A model generated the notes under the pieces. The model did not search any database. It was given only the letters and a program-made list of their open reading frames with translations, and was not told the origin of the DNA. From Patescibacteria group bacterium (lineage in GTDB: Bacteria; Patescibacteriota; Microgenomatia; UBA12405), in the NCBI GenBank assembly GCA_018902845.1, contig JAHIPV010000020.1, forward strand, positions 10,810 to 74,809: a stretch of 64,000 nucleotides of DNA, given 5' to 3'. Of this stretch, positions 13,121 to 58,125 are shown piece after piece (the first letter of the stretch is position 1; the number at the start of each line of letters is the position of its first letter). The translations under genes were made by a program, and so were the position numbers.

Positions 13121-13702
13121 GATTTAGCATTATTAACTAAAGAGTTGGCAGAATCGGGAATATTGTTTTTTGATTTAAAAACTTTAAGAGATATTTTGAA
13201 TATTAAAAATGAAGATTCTTTTTTTGATGTAATAAAAAGATTGAGACGATCCGGAGTTATAAAAAAGATTGAACGAAACAAATATTTATTAAAAGGCAAG
13301 CTGGAGTTTAATGATTTTGCTTTGGCGAATTTTATTTATAGTCCTTCTTATGTTTCTTTTGAATCAGCTTTGAATTTTCATGGTATTTTGTCTCAATTCC
13401 CTTTGGAAATAAGTTCTGCTACCACTAAAAATACAAAGAAAAAATCAGTTGAAGGAAGGCACTTTTTTTATTGCCAGATTAAGAAGAGTTTGTTTTGGGG
13501 TTATGTTAAAAAAGATTCTTATTTGATGGCTGTGCCGGAAAAAGCATTGATAGATCAATTTTATTTATATACAAAAGGTTTGAAATCGTTTGGGGTTGAT
13601 GAATATGATTTATCTTTAATTAACAAGAGAGTTTTAAAGAAATATTTAATACGAATACCTGAAATTAAAAATAAATTGTTAAAAATTTGCGGGTTTTTAT
13701 GA
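13109..13702 (+). CDS. abiEi: AbiEi-like antitoxin / transcriptional regulator (type IV TA, abortive infection AbiE)
   Basis: It lies upstream of and overlaps a clear AbiEii-family gene, has the size expected for AbiEi, and has an inverted-repeat operator in its promoter. Confidence 0.55.
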   Translation: MKTYDLALLTKELAESGILFFDLKTLRDILNIKNEDSFFDVIKRLRRSGVIKKIERNKYLLKGKLEFNDFALANFIYSPSYVSFESALNFHGILSQFPLEISSATTKNTKKKSVEGRHFFYCQIKKSLFWGYVKKDSYLMAVPEKALIDQFYLYTKGLKSFGVDEYDLSLINKRVLKKYLIRIPEIKNKLLKICGFL

Positions 13703-14469
13703 TTGATAAAACTCAATTAAACAGTTTAGTAAAAAAATTTAAAATAAATGAAACTACTGTACTGAGGGAATATTTACAGGTTTGGTTTTTACAAAGATTA
13801 TATTCTGAATCAAAAAGTAAAAATATTTATTTTAAAGGAGGCACTGCCATTCATTTGATTTATAAGGCGCCTCGTTTTTCTGAAGATTTGGATTTTACGG
13901 TTAATATGGATGAAAAAGAGTTTTTGAAGTTTATTGAAAAGTTTTTTTCTGCTTTATCCGGGCTTGAACCTGTCAGTTTTAAACAAAGAAAAGTCTTGGC
14001 CGGTTTTAGATTTTTACTAACTTGCAAGTCAAGTGTGGTGAGTTATCCTGTTTTTATAAACCTTGATTTTTCTTTTAGGGAAATGGCATTGAAACCGGAA
14101 AAGTCGATTATAGAAACTGATTTTCCAATTATTTTTAATTCATATATTTATCATTTGTCTGCCGAGGAGATGTTGGCGGAAAAAGTAAGAGCTATTTTGA
14201 GCAGAAAGAAAGGAAGAGATATTTATGATTTGTGGTATTTATTGAATTTGGATACGAAATTTAACCGTGAATGGATTTTAAAGAAATTAGAATATTACAA
14301 AATGAAAAGTGTAGACATGGAAGAAATTGTGGGGCGAATAAATGGATTTGGGGCAAAACAATTTGTTTTGGATATGAGGCCTTTTGTTCCAATAAATGAA
14401 AAAGACAAGTTAGAATCTCTTTATGCTTATATTTGTGACTATATAAAGAGGAAACTAAAGGATAAGTAG
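13687..14469 (+). CDS. abiEii: AbiEii/AbiGii-family nucleotidyltransferase toxin (DUF1814)
   Basis: Motif YFKGGTAIHLIYKAPRFSEDLDF characteristic of the family; 16-bp overlap with the upstream gene. Confidence 0.75.
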   Translation: MRVFMIDKTQLNSLVKKFKINETTVLREYLQVWFLQRLYSESKSKNIYFKGGTAIHLIYKAPRFSEDLDFTVNMDEKEFLKFIEKFFSALSGLEPVSFKQRKVLAGFRFLLTCKSSVVSYPVFINLDFSFREMALKPEKSIIETDFPIIFNSYIYHLSAEEMLAEKVRAILSRKKGRDIYDLWYLLNLDTKFNREWILKKLEYYKMKSVDMEEIVGRINGFGAKQFVLDMRPFVPINEKDKLESLYAYICDYIKRKLKDK

Positions 14470-14471
14470 AT

Positions 14472-15389
14472 ATGTTGAAGAGGATTTTGAAATCAAGGTT
14501 AATTAAGATTTTGTTTTCGGGGGTATTGCTTTATTTGGTATTTAGAAAAATAGACCTGGGAAGTTTGTTAATGGAAATGAGAAGGGTACCGTGGTGGTTT
14601 TTATTGGCAATGGTTTTGTATGGTTTTTTGTGCGCTTTAATTGGGGCTTTAAGGTGGAGTTTGCTTTTATTAAAAAAGCCAAGATTTAAGGATATTTTAT
14701 TTTTTACCAAAATTATTTATATTGGGTCTTTTTATAGTTTGTTTTTGTCTTCCAGTGTAGGCGGCGACCTAGTTAAATGGTTGCCACTTTTAAAGAAGTA
14801 TCCAAAATTGTCAAAAGTCAAAATTGCCAGTTCGGTTTTGGTGGATAGGATTATTGGCATGTCTGCTTTGGTTTTTGGAGCATTTGGGGCGGTTTTGTTG
14901 GGGAAATTTTTGAAGTTTGATTTTCCGGATTATTTGTTTTGGCTGTTTTTGGTTTTGTTTGTTGGAGTGTTGGGTTTTTATGTTTTGATTTGGTTTTTTG
15001 ATCTTGATAATTTTTTTAGCAGATTTTCAGTTTTAAGAAAGTTGTCCGAGGTGGTTGATTTTTTGAAAAATGAGAATAAAAAAAGAATTATTTATGGTTT
15101 TTTGATTTCTTTGTTTGGGGTGATGATTTGGAATTTGCCAATGTGGTTTTATAGTTTGGTTTTTGATGCAGGGATTGGGTTGTTGCCGATTTATATATTT
15201 ATGCCAATTATCAGTTTGATTTTGATTTTACCGGTGTCAGTGGCCGGGTTTGGAGCCAGAGAAGCTTTGTTTTTGTATTTTTTTGGTAAGCTGGGAATTG
15301 AGAGTGAAAAGATTTTGTTGGTATCGACTTTTACGGGAGTGTTTGGTGTTTTGGTGGCATTGGTTGGCGGGGTTTGGGGGATGGTGTAG
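14472..15389 (+). CDS. Flippase-like polytopic membrane protein (UPF0104 / lysyl-phosphatidylglycerol-synthase TM-region family)
   Basis: 305 aa with about 8 TM helices. The N-terminus RLIKILFSGVLLYLVFRKIDL is typical of this family. Confidence 0.55.
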   Translation: MLKRILKSRLIKILFSGVLLYLVFRKIDLGSLLMEMRRVPWWFLLAMVLYGFLCALIGALRWSLLLLKKPRFKDILFFTKIIYIGSFYSLFLSSSVGGDLVKWLPLLKKYPKLSKVKIASSVLVDRIIGMSALVFGAFGAVLLGKFLKFDFPDYLFWLFLVLFVGVLGFYVLIWFFDLDNFFSRFSVLRKLSEVVDFLKNENKKRIIYGFLISLFGVMIWNLPMWFYSLVFDAGIGLLPIYIFMPIISLILILPVSVAGFGAREALFLYFFGKLGIESEKILLVSTFTGVFGVLVALVGGVWGMV

Positions 15390-15442
15390 GACAAATTTAA
15401 GGTTGTACTTGAAATTTGTCCAAAATTGTTTTAGAATAAATC

Positions 15443-16588
15443 ATGTTTAAAAGAACTTTGTCATCTTTGATAGTTAAAGCCAGTAAGCAGTATTCTGTAA
15501 TTTCTATTACCGGGCCCAGACAGTCGGGTAAAACTACTTTAAGTAAAGGTTTGTTTTCTGATTTCGCTTATTTTAATTTAGAAAATCCCTTAACAAGAGA
15601 GTTTGCGAAAAATGATCCGAAAGCTTTTTTGGCTCAAGACAAAAAAATGGTTATAGACGAGATTCAGCGTGTGCCAGAACTTTTTTCCTACCTTCAAGTG
15701 ATAGTTGATAATGAAAAAAAAAGAAAATTTGTTATTACCGGTTCGCAAAATTTTTTAATTTCAGAAAAAATTTCTCAAACCTTGGCTGGCAGAATAGCTA
15801 TTTTTAGACTTTTGCCTTTGTCTTTAAAAGAATTGCAAAATAACAAGATTGCTCCGGTTGATATTTATAAACTTTTGGTTAAGGGTGGTTATCCGAGATT
15901 ATATGATGAGAAATTGGATTTTTCGGAATGGTATGCAAATTACATTGAAACTTATCTTCAAAGAGATGTGAGAGAAATCAAAGAGATTAAGAATTTATCT
16001 GATTTTCAAACCTTTTTGGGTTTGTGCGCAGGTAGGACCGGACAAATATTAAATCTTTCTTCTTTGGCTAATGATGCAGGAGTTTCTGTGCCTACAATTA
16101 AAGAATGGTTATCGGTTTTAGAGGCTAGTTATGTAATTTATAGATTGCAACCTTTTTACGAAAATTTTAATAAAAGGCTTATCAAGTCTCCAAAAATTTA
16201 TTTTTACGATACGGGTTTGGCTTGTGCTTTGCTTGGTATTAAGACTGAAAAAGAATTGGCAAAACATCCATTAATGGGTAATATTTTTGAAACTTTTGTT
16301 GTTAGTGAATTGCAAAAACAAAATTTACACAGGCAGATGAGATTAAATTTTTATTATTTGAGAGATAAACAAGGAAATGAAGTAGATCTTTTATACAAAA
16401 CAGGGCAAAAACTGCATCTTTTGGAGATTAAGTCTGCCCAGAGTTTTAGGCTGGATTTTGTTAATGCCTTTGATTATTTTGCTAAAATTTCCGGTAAGGA
16501 AACAGAAAATCAAATAATTTATGGAGGGGATCTTAAGCAAAAAAGGAGTAATTTTGTCTTATTGCCATGGAGGGAGATGTGTTTGTAG
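15443..16588 (+). CDS. AAA+ ATPase with DUF4143 C-terminal domain
   Basis: Walker A ITGPRQSGKTTL and Walker B MVIDEIQ. It is a paralogue of 17891..19021. Confidence 0.75.
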   Translation: MFKRTLSSLIVKASKQYSVISITGPRQSGKTTLSKGLFSDFAYFNLENPLTREFAKNDPKAFLAQDKKMVIDEIQRVPELFSYLQVIVDNEKKRKFVITGSQNFLISEKISQTLAGRIAIFRLLPLSLKELQNNKIAPVDIYKLLVKGGYPRLYDEKLDFSEWYANYIETYLQRDVREIKEIKNLSDFQTFLGLCAGRTGQILNLSSLANDAGVSVPTIKEWLSVLEASYVIYRLQPFYENFNKRLIKSPKIYFYDTGLACALLGIKTEKELAKHPLMGNIFETFVVSELQKQNLHRQMRLNFYYLRDKQGNEVDLLYKTGQKLHLLEIKSAQSFRLDFVNAFDYFAKISGKETENQIIYGGDLKQKRSNFVLLPWREMCL

Positions 16589-16633
16589 GAGACGGATGGG
16601 GTTGGTTTTTAAAAACAGTTGCTATAATAAATT

Positions 16634-16825
16634 ATGGTTGATTTAAAAAGTGGGTTTTATAAAACTTTTGCCAATTTACCATTGGGAGTAAGAGATGGGA
16701 TAGTATTGGTAATAGACGGTCAGCCGACAACTTGGAATGTGATCAAATTGGAGGTTGATACAGACAGTAAAACATCAAAGAAGGCCTTAAAATTGTTAGA
16801 TGAGTTGAGATTAATTAAGAAATAG
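16634..16825 (+). CDS. Small hypothetical protein
   Basis: 63-aa ORF immediately upstream of the octamer array. Weak support. Confidence 0.3.
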   Translation: MVDLKSGFYKTFANLPLGVRDGIVLVIDGQPTTWNVIKLEVDTDSKTSKKALKLLDELRLIKK

Positions 16826-16940
16826 ATAATTAGACAACTAGACAACTAGATAACTAGATAACTAGATAACTAGATAACTAGATAACCGGATAACCGGATA
16901 ACCGGATAACCGGACAACTAGATAACCGGATAACCGGATA
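16823..16940. repeat. Periodic 8-bp tandem array, about 14 units (AACTAGAT / AACCGGAT / GACAACTA)
   Basis: Sequence reads AGATAATTAGACAACTAGACAACTAGATAACTAGATAACTAGATAACTAGATAACCGGATAACCGGATAACCGGATAACCGGACAACTAGATAACCGGATAACCGGATAA. The same octamer family occurs at 47113, 47763, 49489 and 58071. Confidence 0.8.
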
Positions 16941-16945
16941 AAAAC

Positions 16946-17182
16946 ATGATGAAAAAAGGTAAAAAAATAAATATAAACGAAAAAGAAATTGTAATGGCTC
17001 AAGTCAGAACTTATGATAGTGATTTTGAATTAAGTATTGGAAGTTTTGGAACTTTTTCAAAAAAAGAATTGCTGGAAAATATCGAAAAAGAAAGTGAAGT
17101 TGGCAAGCAAATTGTTGAAATTCAGATGAATTATTTGAGGGATTTGGTCAGTGGAGATATTTACAAAATTTTGGAAGATTAA
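16946..17182 (+). CDS. Small hypothetical protein, translationally coupled to the downstream caspase-like gene
   Basis: 78-aa ORF whose stop overlaps the next start in a TAATGG junction. Confidence 0.4.
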   Translation: MMKKGKKININEKEIVMAQVRTYDSDFELSIGSFGTFSKKELLENIEKESEVGKQIVEIQMNYLRDLVSGDIYKILED

Positions 17183-17811
17183 TGGTTTTGATAACCCGAC
17201 CCAATCATGATTTGGCTACAAGGTATCTTTATCATTTTAGTAAGAAAGTAGTTGATTACTGTCAAAAAAAATCTATTTCCTTGGTAGATTTAAAAGGCAA
17301 AAAGGCCAATAGGAAATTATTTTTGAGTTATGTCAAGAAAGGAAAATTAAAGTTTGTTTTTGTAAATGGACATGGAAATGATGATATTGTGTGTGGTTAC
17401 GATAATGAAGTAATAGTTGACAAATACGAAAAGGATTTTAAAAAAACTATTTTTTATTGCAGGAGTTGTCGATCGGCAAAGATATTGGGGAAGAAATTGG
17501 TCAAAGGTGGAATCAGCGCATTTGTCGGTTATACAAAAGATTATTATGTATTGATGTCCAGAAAGAAGAATACCAATCCCCTGTCTGATAAGACTGCCAG
17601 ATTATTTTTAGACCCTTCAAATTTGGTGGCCATGTCGATATTAAAAGGAGATAATGTTGGCGAAGCAGACAAAAAGTCAAAAAAATTATTGAAGAAAAAT
17701 ATTAAAGAAGTGATTGGTAGCAAGATGAGATTTAAAGATGATGTGGTGGCCTATTTGCTTCATGATTTAAAAGCCCAAGTAGTCATTGGTGACAAAAGCG
17801 CGAAGTTGTAG
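17182..17811 (+). CDS. Mini caspase-like cysteine peptidase (clan CD-like His-Cys dyad)
   Basis: KFVFVNGHGNDD matches the hydrophobic-strand-plus-(S/N)HG pattern, and KTIFYCRSCRS matches QACRG-like. The His and Cys are about 40 residues apart, as in caspases. Confidence 0.4.
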   Translation: MVLITRPNHDLATRYLYHFSKKVVDYCQKKSISLVDLKGKKANRKLFLSYVKKGKLKFVFVNGHGNDDIVCGYDNEVIVDKYEKDFKKTIFYCRSCRSAKILGKKLVKGGISAFVGYTKDYYVLMSRKKNTNPLSDKTARLFLDPSNLVAMSILKGDNVGEADKKSKKLLKKNIKEVIGSKMRFKDDVVAYLLHDLKAQVVIGDKSAKL

Positions 17812-17890
17812 GTGGGAGAGTAGTGTGAAATGGGATAAGAAATTGGTAGAATGGACTTGACAACTCCATTCTACATTGTAAAATGGAGTT

Positions 17891-19021
17891 GTGTACACTA
17901 GAATTTTAAAGCCGGTAAAAGATAAATGTTTCTTTTTGTTTGGTCCACGCGGTACAGGCAAGACCACTTGGGTCAAGACAACGTATTCGGATGCTATATA
18001 TTTGGATTTGTTGCGATCAGAATTATTTACCAGGTTAATATCTGATCCCGGCAGATTAGAACAGTACATTTTGCCTAATTATCAAGGATATGTGGTGATC
18101 GACGAAGTTCAACGGGTGCCAGAGTTGCTTAATGAAGTTCATCGTTTAATTGAAGATAGAAAAATTAAATTTGTTTTGACCGGTAGTAGCGCTCGAAAAA
18201 TTCGTCGCGGTGGTTATAATTTGTTGGCGGGAAGGGCATTGTCATATCAAATGTATCCATTGACGGCAATAGAAATGGGCGATGATTTTAATTTAGGTAG
18301 AAGTGTGATTCGAGGGATGTTGCCAATGGCGCAAGTTGATGGTTATGGTGAGTACTTGAAAAGTTACATTCAAACTTATTTAGAACAAGAAATAATGCAA
18401 GAAGGATTGACTCGAAATTTGTCGGCTTTTGCCAGATTTTTAGAAGTGGCCAGTTTTTCTCAAGGACAGTTGTTAAATATGGCCTCCATATCTCGAGATG
18501 TGGGAGTAGGACGCAAAGTGATAAGTGGTTATTTTACTATTTTGCAAGATTTGCTGATTGGATATTTGATCAAACCGTTTACCAAGAGGTCAAAAAGAAG
18601 GTTGGTGTCGCATGCAAAGTTTTATTTTTTTGATTGTGGAGTATATCGGGCGATTAGGCCAACCGGACCGCTTGATTCCGGTGATGAGGTGAGTGGAATA
18701 GCAACGGAGTCTTTGGTGTTGAGCCAGTTGATGGCAAATAATGATTTGTTAAAACTAGGGTACGAAGTAAACTATTATCGAACTGCAACCGGGGTGGAGG
18801 TAGATTTTGTGTTGTATGGCAAGAGAGGTCTGGTGGCAATTGAAGTCAAAAAAAGTGGCAAATTTAAAGAGGGAATGATTAGTGGACTAAAGAGATTTAA
18901 GCTTGATTATCCTGAAGCTAAGTTGTATTTATTGTATGGAGGTAGCCAGGAATTATATGTCAATGGGGTGACGGTGATGTCTTTGGAGAAGGCACTGAAA
19001 GAGATGGATAAGTGGTTGTAG
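17891..19021 (+). CDS. AAA+ ATPase with DUF4143 domain
   Basis: LFGPRGTGKTTW and VVIDEVQ. Confidence 0.75.
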   Translation: MYTRILKPVKDKCFFLFGPRGTGKTTWVKTTYSDAIYLDLLRSELFTRLISDPGRLEQYILPNYQGYVVIDEVQRVPELLNEVHRLIEDRKIKFVLTGSSARKIRRGGYNLLAGRALSYQMYPLTAIEMGDDFNLGRSVIRGMLPMAQVDGYGEYLKSYIQTYLEQEIMQEGLTRNLSAFARFLEVASFSQGQLLNMASISRDVGVGRKVISGYFTILQDLLIGYLIKPFTKRSKRRLVSHAKFYFFDCGVYRAIRPTGPLDSGDEVSGIATESLVLSQLMANNDLLKLGYEVNYYRTATGVEVDFVLYGKRGLVAIEVKKSGKFKEGMISGLKRFKLDYPEAKLYLLYGGSQELYVNGVTVMSLEKALKEMDKWL

Positions 19022-19047
19022 AGGTAAGGATTAGGGACAATAAAGAT

Positions 19048-20109
19048 TTAGGGAGTTTGTTTGAAAACAAAATAATTGTCGACCGAAAATTGGCATTGAT
19101 CTATAAAGATTGATTTAAAAAGATCGAGATTGTTTTGTTCGTAAAATAACAGAGTAGCTTGTTTGTATAGTTTTTCGTCAACACTTCTAAATGGAATTGG
19201 AAAGTGATTGTGGGCGAGCAAGATGGCATTGCCGATAATACGACCGGTTCTTTTGTTGCCATCTTCAAAGGGTTGAATATAACTAATTAAGATCATACTT
19301 AGCAAAGATTTGGTAAAAATATTATCAGTAGAGTTGATTAACCGGCACATTTTTTGCATGCTTTCTCTAATTTGGTATTGATTGTCTAGAGGTTTGTATT
19401 TGGTGCCGGTAATGCCTACCAGGGTTTTGCGTAAGTTTTTGGAAACATTGAGTTTGTAGGTAATTATTCTGTGAATTTCTTGAATGGTGGGCAGGTCTGT
19501 TTTTTTAAAATATTTTTTTTGGTTGAAAATCAGATCTATGGCATCTTTGTGGTTTAGAAGCATGATGGTTTCGCTTTTTTGTTTACCTTTAGCTTCGATG
19601 CCTTTTTTTAACAGGAGTTCAGTGTCTAACAGGCTGTATGTGTTGCCTTCGATGAGGCTAGATTTCCAACTTAATTCAATGGTTATTCTTTCGATTTCTT
19701 TTTGAATTATGGTTGGTGATAACTTTTTGAAATTTTGCAGATATTTTTTTTGAAGTTTAAGTAATTGTTTTGTTTCGTCTTTGTTGAAGATATCAGAATT
19801 TTTTAGAGTTGAAAAAATTGAAAAATTAAAGTTTGGCAGTATGTTTCGTGAATCAATCGGTATAGAAAAATATTTGTCAATATCTATAGGTCTGAATAAT
19901 AATCCCTTGTTTGTAAGTTTGTAGGTTGTTTTTGGACCATGACCAATACGAAGCAAATAGTTTTTGGAAAGTAGAAGAGACAGATCTCTTGATAGAGTTA
20001 TGGTTGTAATTTCTTTATCTAAGAGATTTGAGAGTTGTTTTGGGGATAATGGTTTATCCTGGGAAAAGACGGATAATATTTTGGTTTGTCTGTGATTAAG
20101 TTGATTCAT
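19048..20109 (-). CDS. Fic/Doc-family protein with N-terminal winged-HTH-like region; its motif has Gln in place of the catalytic His
   Basis: The motif reads IQPFEDGNKRTGR where the canonical Fic motif is HPFx(D/E)GNGR. The His is replaced by Gln and it has NKR as in Doc. Confidence 0.65.
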   Translation of the reverse strand: MNQLNHRQTKILSVFSQDKPLSPKQLSNLLDKEITTITLSRDLSLLLSKNYLLRIGHGPKTTYKLTNKGLLFRPIDIDKYFSIPIDSRNILPNFNFSIFSTLKNSDIFNKDETKQLLKLQKKYLQNFKKLSPTIIQKEIERITIELSWKSSLIEGNTYSLLDTELLLKKGIEAKGKQKSETIMLLNHKDAIDLIFNQKKYFKKTDLPTIQEIHRIITYKLNVSKNLRKTLVGITGTKYKPLDNQYQIRESMQKMCRLINSTDNIFTKSLLSMILISYIQPFEDGNKRTGRIIGNAILLAHNHFPIPFRSVDEKLYKQATLLFYEQNNLDLFKSIFIDQCQFSVDNYFVFKQTP

Positions 20110-20250
20110 AATGCAATCATATCATCTTAATTAAATAATCATATCATTTTAATTAAATAATCATATCATTTTGATATGATTATTGAGGGTAAATGATGTG
20201 ATTTGGGAAATTTTTTTTGGAGAAGATAGGGGGATAGTATAATTATAAGA
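20110..20250. promoter_or_regulatory. Divergent intergenic region with direct repeats (TAATTAAATAATCATATCATTTT x2-3) and a palindrome AATCATATCATTTTGATATGATTA
   Basis: Read directly from the sequence. It lies between the divergent Fic and GT-C genes. Confidence 0.4.
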
Positions 20251-46517: not shown

Positions 46518-47102
46518 CTATGAGTGACGCCTCCCGATTTTTTTTGGCCTAATTTTAGGGCTTTCTAAATATTCTAATTTTTCTTTCTCTCGGTATAAAA
46601 AGAGTTTGTACAGTTGGAGATTCTTTAATAAGCTTGATTCGGAGTGTTTATTGGGAATAATAATTTTTAATAATTTTTTGTTTTTTATTAAATATTGGTG
46701 TAAGCAGAAAAAGTCTCCGTCTCCTGAAACAATGACGGCCTTTTGGTAATTTTTAAATTCAATGGCGGCAGAATGCAAAACTAGTTCGGCATCAACATTT
46801 CCCTTTGGTTTGTTGTGATTGTCTTTGACTGTGGGTTTAAATACTAGTTGATAACCAAATGAGCACAGACTTTTATAAAGACCTTCATATTGTTTCAGAT
46901 ATCCGATAAACAAAAAGGCCTTAGTAACTCTAAATTTGTCTGAGAGAAATCGATGAAATTTTTTAAAATCTAGTTTCCAGCCTTTGTAAATTAACTGTCT
47001 GTTTCTATAGATATTTTTAGAAGTACCTAGATTTAGGTTTTGGCTGTCAATGAAAGCATAGATTGGCTTATTTTTTATTTTTTGGATTATTTTTTTAGAC
47101 AT
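46518..47102 (-). CDS. NYN-domain (LabA-like, PIN-related) protein
   Basis: PIYAFIDSQNLNL ... KGNVDAELVLH ... AVIVSGDGDFFCL. Confidence 0.7.
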   Translation of the reverse strand: MSKKIIQKIKNKPIYAFIDSQNLNLGTSKNIYRNRQLIYKGWKLDFKKFHRFLSDKFRVTKAFLFIGYLKQYEGLYKSLCSFGYQLVFKPTVKDNHNKPKGNVDAELVLHSAAIEFKNYQKAVIVSGDGDFFCLHQYLIKNKKLLKIIIPNKHSESSLLKNLQLYKLFLYREKEKLEYLESPKIRPKKIGRRHS

Positions 47103-47112
47103 ACGGGTGTTA

Positions 47113-47143
47113 TAGCTGGATTACTGGATAACCGGATGATGGG
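47113..47143. repeat. Octamer-family array (CTGGATTACTGGATAACCGGATGA)
   Basis: Same 8-bp periodicity and units as 16823-16940. It lies upstream of NYN gene 1. Confidence 0.6.
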
Positions 47144-47211: not shown

Positions 47212-47751
47212 CTAAGGTCTTGTCCGAAGGTTGCTCCCTCTTTTTTTTGTTGATAATTTCTTTTTTAGGTCGTTTATATAAACGAAGTATTTTCTAAATT
47301 TTCTTAATAAGGCCGAGTATTTTTTTGGATTTGGAATGATAATGTGGGAGAGTTTGTTTTTCTTTTTGAGATATTCTATTAAGCAGTGAAAGTCTCCGTC
47401 GCCTGAAACAATGATTGCTTTGTTGTAATTGGGATATTGGATCATGGTGTGTAAAACCAGATCAGCGTCTACGTTGCCCTTGGTGTATCTTTTATCGTCT
47501 TTTTTGTATTCCAGTGTTGGTTTAAAAACAACTATATAGTCGGATTCTTGCAGATATGTGTAAAGTATTTGGTTTCCGGGAATGTAACCAATGAATAAAA
47601 AGGCTTTTTCAACTTTGTATTTATCTTTGAGGTAAATACGGAATCTTTTGAAATCTAGTTTCCAGCCTTGAGATCTGATGGAGAGGTTTAGGTTTTGGCT
47701 GTCAATGAAAGCGTAAATGGGCTTGGTTATTTTTTTATTTTTTTTAGACAT
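47212..47751 (-). CDS. NYN-domain (LabA-like) protein, tandem paralogue
   Basis: PIYAFIDSQNLNL ... KGNVDADLVLH ... AIIVSGDGDFHCL. Confidence 0.7.
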   Translation of the reverse strand: MSKKNKKITKPIYAFIDSQNLNLSIRSQGWKLDFKRFRIYLKDKYKVEKAFLFIGYIPGNQILYTYLQESDYIVVFKPTLEYKKDDKRYTKGNVDADLVLHTMIQYPNYNKAIIVSGDGDFHCLIEYLKKKNKLSHIIIPNPKKYSALLRKFRKYFVYINDLKKKLSTKKRGSNLRTRP

Positions 47752-47762
47752 ATGGGTATTAT

Positions 47763-47796
47763 AGCTGGATTACTAGATTACTGGACAACTAGACTG
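47763..47796. repeat. Octamer-family array (GCTGGATTACTAGATTACTGGACAACTAGAC)
   Basis: It lies upstream of NYN gene 2. The flanking sequence CATATGGGTATTATAGCTGGATTACT is duplicated at 47101-47125. Confidence 0.6.
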
Positions 47797-48952: not shown

Positions 48953-49492
48953 ATGGATGAAGAGAGTAAAAAAGAATTAGCTGTAATAATTTCTGACTAT
49001 ATTGAGTCGTTGTCTTTGTTGAAGCAGTATGATGATAGGAAAATAAGGGTTTCTGGTTTGTCTGAGAAAGTAAAGTATGTTTTGGAATATAAAAAAGTGG
49101 TTGGTCTGGTGATGGAGCTGAGACAAGACTTGATTAAAAAGAATTTGGCTACAGAATTATTTGGAGTTGAAAATAGTAAAAAACTGGATGGGTTGATTGG
49201 GGCTATTAATCAAACTTTTGATGGAAAAAATTTGTATTCAAGTATTGAAGAAAAAGCGGCTAATTTGTTGTATATGGTTATTAAAGATCATCCTTTTGTC
49301 GATGGAAATAAAAGGACGGCGGCGACTTTGTTTGTATATTTTTTGAATAGAAATGGATATTTGTTTAAGAAGAATGGCGAAAGAAAGATTGATGATAGGG
49401 CTTTGGTGGCTTTGACTTTGTTGATTGCGGTCAGTGATCCAAGGGAGAAGGAAATGATGGTTAAGTTGACGATGAGTTTGATAAAGAATTAG
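48953..49492 (+). CDS. Doc-type Fic-fold protein (death-on-curing toxin family)
   Basis: DHPFVDGNKRTAATLF matches the Doc motif H-x-F-x-D-G-N-K-R. Confidence 0.65.
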   Translation: MDEESKKELAVIISDYIESLSLLKQYDDRKIRVSGLSEKVKYVLEYKKVVGLVMELRQDLIKKNLATELFGVENSKKLDGLIGAINQTFDGKNLYSSIEEKAANLLYMVIKDHPFVDGNKRTAATLFVYFLNRNGYLFKKNGERKIDDRALVALTLLIAVSDPREKEMMVKLTMSLIKN

Positions 49493-49545
49493 ACAATTAG
49501 ATAACTAGACAACTAGATTACTGGATTACTGGATGACTGGATAAA
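49489..49545. repeat. Octamer-family array (AGACAATTAGATAACTAGACAACTAGATTACTGGATTACTGGATGACTGGATAA)
   Basis: 8-bp periodic units. Confidence 0.7.
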
Positions 49546-49706: not shown

Positions 49707-51539
49707 TTGGAGTTTGGTAGAATTGGAGATATGGGACAGAGGAAGATAAAAGCAGAAAGACGAAAAAAGAAAAACAAGGAGATCCTTCGCTACACTCAGG
49801 ATGACGGTGGGAGGCAGAATGACGGTGGGAGGATTCAGAACGACGGTGGGAGGCAGAATGACGGGGGGAGGGATTCGGGACGGGCTCGGTTTTGGTTTGG
49901 CAAGGTTGGAATAAGGGGAATATTGAGGGAGAATTGGAAGTTTTTGGTGATATTAACGATGGGGATTGTTTTGCTTTATTTGAATGCAATGAGAGGAGAT
50001 TTTGTGTCTGATGATTATGCCACTATTCCAAACAATCCTTTAATCAAGGATATGTCAGCCGGTTTTAAGGGTTTGAACGTTGTTTATATAAGCAATGTGA
50101 TTATCGCCAGACTTTTTGGAGTTACTCCCCTCCCTTTTCATTTGTATAGCCTCTTTTTGTTTATTTTGACTTGTGTGGTGGCTTTTCTTTTTTTGCGAGT
50201 TTTGTTTGGTGAAAAAGTAGCCAAATTAACGACAATTATTTTTGCCGTTCATCCGATTCATGTTGAGGCGGTTTCTTGGATTTCGGGAAAACCCTATACT
50301 TTGGCTTCTATGTTTATGTTGGCGGCTTTGCTGGTTGGAGTGTTTTTGGTGGAGACAAGGAAAAGAAAATATTTGATTTGGATGATAATTTTTGCTCTTT
50401 TGGCTTATCAGTCCGATGCGGCTAGGTCTTTATCTTTTATATTTTTGTTTTTGCTGTATTTGTGGTTTAGAGGTGGACTTGGAGGGATGAAAAAGCAGTT
50501 TTATAGATATTTGCCTTTTGTATTGGTTGTTATAACAACGGGAATTGTAATTTTGTGGCCTGGTATTAAGACAAGAATTGAGTCTGTTAATTCGGGATAT
50601 AATCGAGTTGGAAGTATTTTTTATAATCCGTTTTTTCAATATCCGACTTCGGTAACAAAGTATTTACAATTAATGCTGATTCCGGCTGATTTGACACTTT
50701 ATCACACTATGTATACTGTTCCGGTTTGGCTGAATTGGTTGGTTTTGGTGACATTTTTGTCTTTGTTGATATATTCTTTTTTTAGAGATAGAAAGATTTT
50801 TTTTGGATTGAGTTTTATGTTTTTGGCTTCGGTGGCTTCAATGGCGCCGGTTAAGGTTGGCTGGCTGGTGGCAGAAAGGTATATGTTTTTGGGGAGTTTG
50901 GGATTTTGCCTGGTACTGGTTTTGTTTTGGGACAGGATTCCTAAAAAACTGAAATTAGTAAAATTGACAGTTTTTGTATGTTTAATTATTGGTTTTACGG
51001 TTAGAACTTTTGTGAGAAATATTGATTGGCAAACTAATCATAAACTTTGGGTAAATACTGTTCAGACATCTCCAAACAGCCATAATGCTTGGAATAATAT
51101 TGGAGATGATTACGATAAATTAAAAGACTATGAAAACGCCATAAAGGGATTTACTCAATCAACTGTGATGAAGGCCAATTATGCCGATGCCTATCATAAC
51201 AGGGCCAATATTTATTTGAAAACCGGACGTTTGGATTTGGCCAGAGACAGTTATTTGACTGCTTTAAAATATTCCCCCGGTTTGTTTCAGACTTATGTGA
51301 GCTTGACTCAGGTTGAATTGATGCAGAAAAAACCTGAAAAGGCAATGGAATATGCCAAAAAAACGGTTGAGATGCAACCAAACAATTTTCAAGCCCATTA
51401 TGTTTTGGGGGTAGTTTTGGCTCAGTCGGGAAATAGAGAGGAGGCTTTAAAAGAGATAAAGATTTCTTTACAACTGAACCCTAATTTTGGGCCGGCTAAA
51501 GATGCGTTGGTTAAACTAAATTCAGATGAATCAAAATAA
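49707..51539 (+). CDS. Transmembrane + C-terminal TPR-repeat protein (TMTC/GT-C-like architecture)
   Basis: About 9 TM helices followed by 4-5 TPR units (NAWNNIGDDYDKLKDYENAIKGF ... AYHNRANIYLKTGRLDLARDSY ...). The first ~60 codons are repeat-derived, so the true start may be internal, for example near 49951. Confidence 0.55.
   Translation: MEFGRIGDMGQRKIKAERRKKKNKEILRYTQDDGGRQNDGGRIQNDGGRQNDGGRDSGRARFWFGKVGIRGILRENWKFLVILTMGIVLLYLNAMRGDFVSDDYATIPNNPLIKDMSAGFKGLNVVYISNVIIARLFGVTPLPFHLYSLFLFILTCVVAFLFLRVLFGEKVAKLTTIIFAVHPIHVEAVSWISGKPYTLASMFMLAALLVGVFLVETRKRKYLIWMIIFALLAYQSDAARSLSFIFLFLLYLWFRGGLGGMKKQFYRYLPFVLVVITTGIVILWPGIKTRIESVNSGYNRVGSIFYNPFFQYPTSVTKYLQLMLIPADLTLYHTMYTVPVWLNWLVLVTFLSLLIYSFFRDRKIFFGLSFMFLASVASMAPVKVGWLVAERYMFLGSLGFCLVLVLFWDRIPKKLKLVKLTVFVCLIIGFTVRTFVRNIDWQTNHKLWVNTVQTSPNSHNAWNNIGDDYDKLKDYENAIKGFTQSTVMKANYADAYHNRANIYLKTGRLDLARDSYLTALKYSPGLFQTYVSLTQVELMQKKPEKAMEYAKKTVEMQPNNFQAHYVLGVVLAQSGNREEALKEIKISLQLNPNFGPAKDALVKLNSDESK
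49797..49872. repeat. Tandem 21-bp repeat x3.5 (GGGAGGCAGAATGACGGTGGG-type), derived from a family-B terminus
   Basis: It would encode DDGGRQNDGGRIQNDGGRQNDGGR in frame. Confidence 0.7.
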
Positions 51540-58070: not shown

Positions 58071-58125
58071 GGTTACTGGACAATTAGATAACTGGATTAC
58101 TAGATTACTGGATAACTAGATAAAG
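58071..58125. repeat. Octamer-family array in a divergent promoter region
   Basis: GGTTACTGGACAATTAGATAACTGGATTACTAGATTACTGGATAACTAGATAAAG. Confidence 0.7.

Follow-up and report, generated by a model that had tools for sequence, protein, structure and literature searches.

A 64,000-nucleotide (nt) stretch of a Patescibacteria group bacterium genome (contig JAHIPV010000020.1 of assembly GCA_018902845.1, positions 10,810 to 74,809; hereafter the window) carries a cassette of three short genes, here called g1, g2 and g3, the last of which encodes a small basic protein that is very probably a genuine homologue of the clan CD cysteine peptidases. An earlier note on this DNA had described a two-gene module, made up of a small protein and a minimal caspase-like peptidase next to DUF4143 ATPases and Fic. 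Both of its open reading frames (ORFs), g2 and g3, are present and overlap, the stop codon of g2 and the start codon of g3 having one base in common (TAATG), but the 63-amino acid (aa) ORF upstream of them is a conserved first gene, so the module has three genes (Table 1). A Pfam scan detects no domain in the g2 and g3 proteins of the window, in agreement with the claim that the 209-aa protein has no other domain, and g3 is left without a match even at E ≤ 1. Judging by their numerous homologues, g2 and g3 are real genes.

Table 1. The three-gene cassette and its neighbours, in coordinates of the window.
Feature	Position	Strand	Basis or remark
Extended -10-like promoter box, TGcTATAAT	16620..16628	+	Read from sequence; 5 nt 5' of the g1 ATG
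g1, 63-aa soluble protein, gene 1 of the operon	16634..16825	+	Homologous to gene 1 of related loci
Octamer tandem array YRGAYAAC, 14 units, non-coding	16823..16942		Tandem Repeats Finder (TRF) and pattern search
g2, 78-aa acidic partner, isoelectric point (pI) 5.0	16946..17182	+	Homologues in all loci
g3, 209-aa basic (pI 9.8) single-domain protein, probable clan CD cysteine peptidase homologue	17182..17811	+	AlphaFold2 and Foldseek
His64 codon (NGHG), predicted catalytic His, C-terminal end of strand beta3	17371..17373	+	Alignment and model
Cys96 codon (ARSC), predicted catalytic Cys, C-terminal end of strand beta4	17467..17469	+	Alignment and model
AbiEii	13687-14469		Pfam scan
DUF4143/AAA_14 ATPases, two paralogous	15443-16588 and 17891-19021		Pfam scan
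Fic	19048-20109	-	Pfam scan

The g3 protein belongs to a large family of uniform size. A word-indexed search returned 47 homologues, all of them about 210 aa long, and those with a named source belong to Patescibacteria. Searching 1.84 billion cluster representatives (clusters at 50% identity) with a profile gave 2553 matches at E ≤ 1e-3, 1376 clusters at E ≤ 1e-10 and 391 at E ≤ 1e-30. Nearly all of the best 150 relatives have a single domain and a length of about 200-220 aa; the exceptions are one protein of 246 aa and a few shorter sequences that are probably partial. The caspase His/Cys pair had been proposed from two motifs of the window protein, KFVFVNGHGNDD at residues 57-68 and TIFYCRSCRS at residues 89-98. 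In 43 homologues the invariant residues are N62, G63, H64, G65, G72, C96, G116, D136, A139 and F142, and among 145 more diverse representatives G63, H64, G65 and C96 are the sole invariant columns. The proposed pair hence holds for His64 and for the second Cys of YCRSCRS, C96, but not for C93, which is Ala in the family consensus Y-A-R-S-C, that is (Y/F)A(R/I)SC. The two residues are 32 positions apart, rather than the roughly 40 that had been claimed.

The AlphaFold2 model of g3 has a mean predicted local distance difference test (pLDDT) score of 97.6 and a predicted template modelling (pTM) score of 0.92, with six main strands (residues 2-6, 34-38, 58-62, 90-94, 113-117 and 199-203) and flanking helices. 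H64 directly follows the strand at 58-62 (FVFV-NG-H64-G) and C96 directly follows the strand at 90-94 (IFYCRS-C96). Clan CD is an alpha/beta/alpha sandwich with a central six-stranded sheet, and its defining dyad consists of a His at the C-terminal end of beta3 and a Cys at that of beta4 (PMC4357240). Both features, the six-stranded sandwich and a dyad after beta3 and beta4, are predicted for g3 by the model together with the alignment. Foldseek against the PDB ranks a SAVED-CHAT protease highest (8tl0_C, E 8e-5, TMq 0.60), followed by gingipain R (1cvr, E 2.5e-4) and then gingipain K (Kgp, 6i9a), RgpB (4ief) and the TPR-CHAT protease of Craspase (7y84 and 8d9h). The top seven PDB matches are all clan CD enzymes, at TMq 0.44-0.60, and the weaker ones (E 0.05-0.08) are glycosylphosphatidylinositol (GPI) transamidase, separase and C11, mixed with unrelated folds. 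Structure prediction had been named in the earlier note as the check that could overturn its call, should it return a non-caspase fold and should the His/Cys vary among homologues. It returned a clan CD (caspase/gingipain/CHAT) fold, and the caspase-like call was right at the level of the clan, but the nearest families are gingipain and CHAT and not C14.

At the level of sequence, Peptidase_C25 is the most frequent Pfam match among its homologues, in 4 of 43 and then in 9 of 145 (sub-threshold). An ordinary family member of 215 aa with 39% identity to the window g3 (P0049) reaches 29.2 bits (E 7.2e-7) against PF01364 (Peptidase_C25), for which the curated gathering cut-off is 23 bits, and its alignment covers positions 215-374 in the C-terminal part of the profile. 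Since P0049 alone exceeds the C25 cut-off and the window g3 is unmatched, the comparison indicates a distant relative of Peptidase family C25 rather than a member. CHAT (PF12770) is matched weakly by 3 of the 145 homologues (best E 0.0098) and Peptidase_C13 weakly by one homologue, and Peptidase_C14 (PF00656) is missing from the top 25 Pfam families matched by the 145. By sequence the nearest family is accordingly gingipain C25, then CHAT, and not caspase C14. Sequence-profile searches with 43 or 145 homologues retrieved no clan CD entry from the PDB; aspartate aminotransferase, the top PDB match of a profile search, looks spurious and was rejected. No model of Pfam, NCBIfam, PADLOC or PHROGs is matched above threshold by g1, g2 or g3 of the window, and the last three collections gave nothing meaningful for any of them. 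A weak PADLOC match (E 0.0054) aligns g3 residues 23-99, the His/Cys region, with positions 74-146 of the 228-position profile of a candidate defence family, PDC-S63, whose profile length is near that of g3.

Compared with known clan CD families, g3 stands out as a catalytic core by itself. Gingipains (MEROPS C25, PF01364) are its closest family in sequence, hold structural ranks 2-5 and have the same His-Gly...Cys order, the His211-Cys244 spacing of RgpB being close to the 32 residues of g3. However, they are secreted, multi-domain proteins (a catalytic part of about 430 residues plus an Ig-like domain) made as prodomain zymogens with a type IX secretion signal. With its 209 aa and neither signal peptide nor prodomain, g3 equals only their caspase-like subdomain (catalytic subdomain B), and it lacks the secreted multi-domain architecture of C25, which runs from a signal peptide, prodomain and subdomain A to an Ig-like and a C-terminal sorting domain; its own family is uniformly about 205-220 aa long. 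CHAT proteases of prokaryotic immune systems (SAVED-CHAT 8tl0; Csx29 of Craspase, 7y84) are the best structural match; they are intracellular clan CD enzymes encoded beside small partner proteins on which they act. Unlike g3, they carry sensor domains (SAVED, TPR) and need a signal from CRISPR or a cyclic nucleotide; g3 has neither a fused domain nor linked signalling genes, and the window protein does not match PF12770. Caspases, metacaspases and orthocaspases (C14) share the clan CD fold with the dyad after beta3 and beta4, but the Cys motif of g3 is ARSC and not QACxG, there is no p20/p10 linker and Peptidase_C14 is not among the top Pfam families of the homologues. The cysteine protease domain (CPD) of MARTX, TcdA and TcdB (C80) sets a precedent for a clan CD domain of this size, roughly 200 residues, but it resides in giant secreted toxins, is activated by inositol hexakisphosphate (InsP6) and cuts in cis after Leu. 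By contrast, g3 stands as a protein by itself, encoded in an operon of three genes, and has no C80 match in Foldseek or Pfam. The MARTX-CPD is discussed in the literature (PMC4357240).

The g3 protein has no hydrophobic segment or hydrophobic N-terminus (maximum KD19 0.69) and no predicted transmembrane segment, and because of this it is presumably intracellular. We infer that it is an active cysteine endopeptidase. Other clan CD enzymes carry their S1-pocket residues in the loops after beta1 and beta5 (PMC4357240). In g3 each of these loops holds a conserved acidic residue, D10 in the first and D136 at the end of the second, which hints at a basic P1 residue.

The two small partners match no known family above threshold. 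The window g1 is 43-53% identical to the first small gene, and the window g2 30-51% identical to the second small gene, of the first distant loci examined. For g1 there are 2429 homologous clusters, all of about 60 aa and unannotated, with F8, P16, R20 and W34 invariant and P16 and R20 in a predicted loop; its family matches are all sub-threshold (DUF7713 in 8 of 42 members, plus scattered winged-helix-type families). For g2 there are 309 homologues of 67-91 aa, with G32, G53 and L64 invariant. Its AlphaFold2 model (pLDDT 90.2) has a disordered Lys-rich N-terminal tail, a helix at 10-21, a hairpin at 28-38 and helices at 39-47, 51-69 and 72-77, and has no significant structural match in the PDB or BFVD (best in the PDB prefoldin beta, E 0.36). 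Paralogy of g1 and g2 was considered and set aside: hhalign aligns their hairpin-helix cores, at P 0.0095 and a probability of 4%, which is too weak. Neither protein has a conserved C-terminal Gly-Gly or sorting-signal-like motif, and the C-termini vary in length. Across loci the median pI is 5.7 for g1, 5.1 for g2 and 9.3 for g3.

Profile searches find g1, g2 and g3 in the same order on one strand in every fetched locus with upstream sequence, and a gene is missing solely in two loci cut by a contig end. Searches begun from homologues of g1 (P0409, P0429) or g2 (P0237, P0263) reach the same triad. Among the 185,579 species representatives of GTDB, one genome each, a narrow search pattern yielded 46 loci. 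Looking for g2 and g3 together across genomes, as the earlier note had suggested, we find the pair kept together and tightly coupled: the most frequent g2/g3 junction is -8 nt (22 of 55 loci), and for g1/g2 it is -4 nt (22 of 54 loci), so that stop and start codons usually overlap. A conserved fourth gene was looked for across the loci and none was found. We therefore consider it highly probable that the triad is an obligate functional unit.

The operon also appears, from the sequence upstream of g1, to have its own promoter. A -10-like hexamer lies 4-14 nt 5' of the g1 start in 22 of 41 bacterial loci, compared with 24% of neighbouring ORF starts (Fisher p 1.6e-4) and 7% of random positions. 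Shine-Dalgarno (SD)-like motifs precede g1 in 5 of 54 loci, against 17 of 55 for g2 and 21 of 56 for g3. The closeness of the -10-like box and the scarcity of SD-like motifs before g1 together suggest a leaderless-type transcript beginning at g1.

The longest octamer array of the window, which had been described as preceding the module, is indeed the longest of five such arrays (TRF: 8-bp unit, 14.0 copies, 16823-16934) but is not simply upstream, because the conserved first gene lies on its other side and the array separates g1 from g2. Its sequence GAYAACYRGAYAAC, with one mismatch allowed, has 24 matches against 0.17 expected. The YRGAYAAC units contain stop codons in all frames, the stop codon of g1 comes from the array, and the array ends 4 nt 5' of the g2 ATG. 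A large repeat-filled g1/g2 gap (120 nt) is found in the window alone; elsewhere g1 and g2 overlap or nearly abut, except in L036, where gaps of 133 and 104 nt are non-repetitive and without octamer repeats. Among all fetched loci the array is confined to those of the same species, and in L040, whose g3 is 74% identical to that of the window, g1 and g2 overlap by 4 nt and there is no array. On these grounds the array is, as far as the comparison of loci goes, a recent insertion or expansion that uncouples g1 from g2. In the assembly of another sample (L056) it has one unit fewer, and two short-k assemblies end within it; copy-number variation is plausible but could be an assembly artefact. Many alternative hairpins are possible in its transcript (z = -7.7), because the units contain CTAG and CCGG, and neither a promoter nor a terminator turned up within it in a sigma-70 consensus scan.

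The five YRGAYAAC arrays (16823-16942, 47112-47137, 47768-47793, 49487-49542 and 58075-58124) are all intergenic and in the same orientation. Three of the other four adjoin accessory genes, namely NYN-domain genes (46518-47102 and 47212-47751, minus strand) and a short Fic/Doc gene (48953-49492). The idea of a widespread element was dropped: a degenerate 30-nt metagenome scan gave at least 119 contigs, with mostly unrelated arrays, a guanine-plus-cytosine (GC) content of 0.17-0.69 and half of the matches inside open frames, and because the matches are this heterogeneous the array is not shown to be widespread.

All annotated homologues and loci found are from the candidate phyla radiation (CPR; Patescibacteria) or from DPANN archaea. 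The bacterial loci are labelled Roizman-, Shapiro-, Davies-, Gottesman-, Levy-, Woese-, Beckwith-, Berkel- and Uhrbacteria, and the archaeal ones Micrarchaeaceae, Aenigmatarchaeota, Woesearchaeota and Iainarchaeum. For at least one of the latter (L051) the archaeal context is genuine, since the next gene encodes TFIIB. In a midpoint-rooted neighbour-joining (NJ) tree of g3, the archaeal-labelled L044, L047, L050, L051 and L052 are grouped at the base and the Bathyarchaeia-labelled L027 nests among bacterial sequences. The labels 'uncultured Gammaproteobacteria' or 'Pseudomonadales' on further loci (L013, L014, L015, L022, L031, L033, L035-L037, L039, L040, L043, L046 and L048) look like placeholder taxonomy, because their g3 sequences interleave with Microgenomates-type sequences in the tree. 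Two metagenome-assembled genomes (MAGs) have two copies of the cassette each (L010/L011 and L016/L049). In L048 (4950-5638) a frameshift or an assembly error splits g3 over two frames, and in L045 (4965-5459) the match covers only residues 61-207; both may be decaying copies.

The surroundings of the cassette vary from locus to locus. In a Pfam census, 149 flanking ORFs from 51 non-redundant loci represent 167 different families, with no recurrent partner; GT2 leads with 5, followed by class I tRNA synthetases, DUF4143 and PMT_2 with 3 each. The DUF4143 and Fic neighbours named in the earlier note are confirmed by Pfam for the window, but the link is not conserved: two of the three DUF4143 ORFs in the census belong to the window itself, and among roughly 55 distinct loci only the window, L011 and L059 have such a neighbour. 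L001 has the outer flanks of the window (LPG_synthase_TM upstream and a 511/525-aa membrane protein downstream) but neither ATPase nor Fic between them, by which comparison the ATPase/Fic context of the window is a set of lineage-specific local insertions. The downstream ATPase has a strong promoter-like site of its own (TTGACA-16-TAAAAT, 17857-17884). Genes of toxin-antitoxin (TA) or restriction-modification (RM) type surround the cassette in the window, L004, L007 and L059. The window is dense in TA- and defence-type genes around the cassette (13687-20109), and L059 (616-5258) has the cassette amid MazG, a DUF4143 ATPase, two HicB-like antitoxins, a DUF433/DUF5615 pair and an MNT-type nucleotidyltransferase.

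Two further repeats were seen in the window. A 22-bp tandem repeat, AATCATATCATTTTAATTAAAT, present in 2.6 copies with a 97% match at 20115-20172, lies in the divergent intergenic region between the start of Fic (20109, minus strand) and the gene for the 525-aa membrane protein (20251), and could be an operator or promoter element. An 18/39-bp tandem repeat, CAGAATGACGGTGGGAGG, at 49796-49876, is GC-rich compared with the 34% GC of the window and lies in the 5' part of a 610-aa TPR/PMT_2-like gene (49707-51539).

Our favoured and most economical reading, to which we give a probability of about 0.35-0.4, is that the cassette would encode a TA-like latent protease restrained by g2 and g1. The three proteins would form a complex in which the small ones hold the protease latent, like an antitoxin pair, and g1 may additionally regulate the operon. 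Once the partners were lost or displaced, g3 would be free to cut proteins of the cell, possibly after Arg or Lys, and the cassette would act as a self-contained TA-like switch. We favour this reading because the partners are usually acidic and the enzyme basic, a complementarity of charge that would suit direct binding, the genes are stoichiometrically coupled and apparently under their own promoter, the location is variable, there are extra and possibly decaying copies, and the neighbourhood is occasionally of TA or RM type. In its small adjacent genes, overlapping junctions and promoter-like box the cassette has the architecture of type II and tripartite TA systems. Tripartite TA operons such as omega-epsilon-zeta and PaaR2-PaaA2-ParE2 likewise consist of three tight short genes in the order small-small-larger, with acidic small and basic large products, a promoter of their own, a variable chromosomal location and multiple copies, but the cassette has no homology to known TA components in Pfam, NCBIfam or PADLOC. 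Several further observations weigh against a TA-like switch. In the literature searched there is no precedent for a TA toxin with a clan CD fold, and most loci lie among housekeeping genes and not in defence islands. At the sensitivities used, g3 was not found in IMG/VR, in INPHARED phage records or in PLSDB plasmids, so these collections give no sign of mobility. The g1 of the window is basic (pI 9.4), unlike the median of its family, no DNA-binding fold was established for g1 or g2 by family searches or by Foldseek with g2, and the preference for a basic P1 residue (Arg/Lys) that g3 may have is read from loop positions. Taken one step further, to an unrecognised class of TA-like or suicide switches with a minimal caspase-fold toxin and two small restrainers in both CPR and DPANN, the proposal is doubtful, if well worth considering.

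Much of the same evidence can be read differently. In the main rival reading g1 and/or g2, rather than inhibitors, could be specific substrates of g3 in a dedicated processing or signalling module, cut for example after Arg20 of g1 (NLPLxxR|xEI) or in the tail of g2 to release an active fragment or regulator, as Csx29 of Craspase cuts Csx30 and CalpL cuts CalpT. CHAT proteases that act on a single dedicated partner come closest to g3 in structure, the invariant Pro16 and Arg20 of g1 lie in a predicted loop, g2 has a disordered Lys-rich tail, and strict co-occurrence with stoichiometric coupling suits an enzyme and its substrate as well as an enzyme and its inhibitor. However, g3 lacks a sensor domain (TPR, SAVED) to time the cleavage, neither g1 nor g2 shows any sign of an effector or DNA-binding function, and co-translated substrates would be cut constitutively unless the enzyme were gated in some other way, and we regard substrates as rather unlikely. 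The small proteins could instead be moieties that g3, acting as a transpeptidase or ligase, would attach to a target, in the manner of GPI transamidase or the legumain ligases, or g3 could be a non-catalytic scaffold. The fold matches include GPI transamidase PIG-K, one homologue weakly matches Peptidase_C13, and two small proteins would fit the part of transferred moieties. Against this, the full His-Gly...Cys dyad is kept in 145 of 145 representatives, which argues against a pseudo-enzyme, a conserved C-terminal Gly-Gly or sorting-like motif is missing from g1 and g2, and the best structural matches are hydrolytic peptidases, all of which makes a non-proteolytic role quite improbable.

A more ordinary function is also conceivable, in which g3, as a housekeeping enzyme specific to ultra-small episymbionts, would for example help a cellular protein to mature or check its quality, with g1 and g2 as adaptor subunits. 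The flanks are mostly housekeeping or cell-envelope genes (GT2, PMT_2, tRNA synthetases, FtsZ/FtsA), the family is confined to CPR and DPANN and missing from the phage and plasmid collections searched, and the grouping of the five archaeal-labelled copies at the base of the tree suggests old vertical inheritance. Yet the distribution is patchy, even allowing for the narrow pattern behind the 46 loci in 185,579 species representatives, synteny is not conserved, and paralogous copies in single MAGs and possibly decaying copies are atypical of essential genes, so this too seems improbable. The proposal of the earlier note, a two-gene protease effector with an inhibitor or sensor that works with the DUF4143 ATPases and Fic as a defence system, appeals to the place of the cassette between two DUF4143/AAA_14 genes, beside Fic and near AbiEii, and a DUF4143 ATPase adjoins the cassette in L011 and L059 too. 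It is largely refuted by the comparative context and we hold it to be highly improbable: DUF4143 accounts for 3 of the 149 flanking ORFs from the 51 loci, two of them in the window, L001 does without ATPase and Fic, the downstream ATPase has its own promoter-like site, PADLOC gives no meaningful match and the module has three genes. 

Clan CD proteases drive cell death and immune signalling in several settings, from animal caspases to bacterial CHAT and gasdermin-activating proteases. While clan CD peptidases as such are known, what is new here is a free-standing, core-only member in a three-gene cassette, always with two small proteins of no known family, common to CPR and DPANN, and the literature searched, including that on DUF7713, PDC-S63, clan CD in CPR and caspase-like TA toxins, holds no description of the cassette. 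The g3 family is a large unannotated branch of clan CD, with at least 1376 clusters (E ≤ 1e-10), that has the catalytic core only, and its hosts are two ultra-small, mostly uncultured groups whose gene content is largely unexplained. Whether the partners restrain g3 or are its substrates, the three families merit Pfam and MEROPS entries, and the proteins are small enough for direct biochemistry and structures. If the partners are substrates, the cassette would be a minimal protease-signalling relay. If they restrain g3, it would be a clan CD system of TA type and a compact model of caspase-fold latency, and, should the suicide-switch reading be true, about the simplest free-standing protease-plus-inhibitor module for death or dormancy, tied to the episymbiotic way of life of ultra-small cells.

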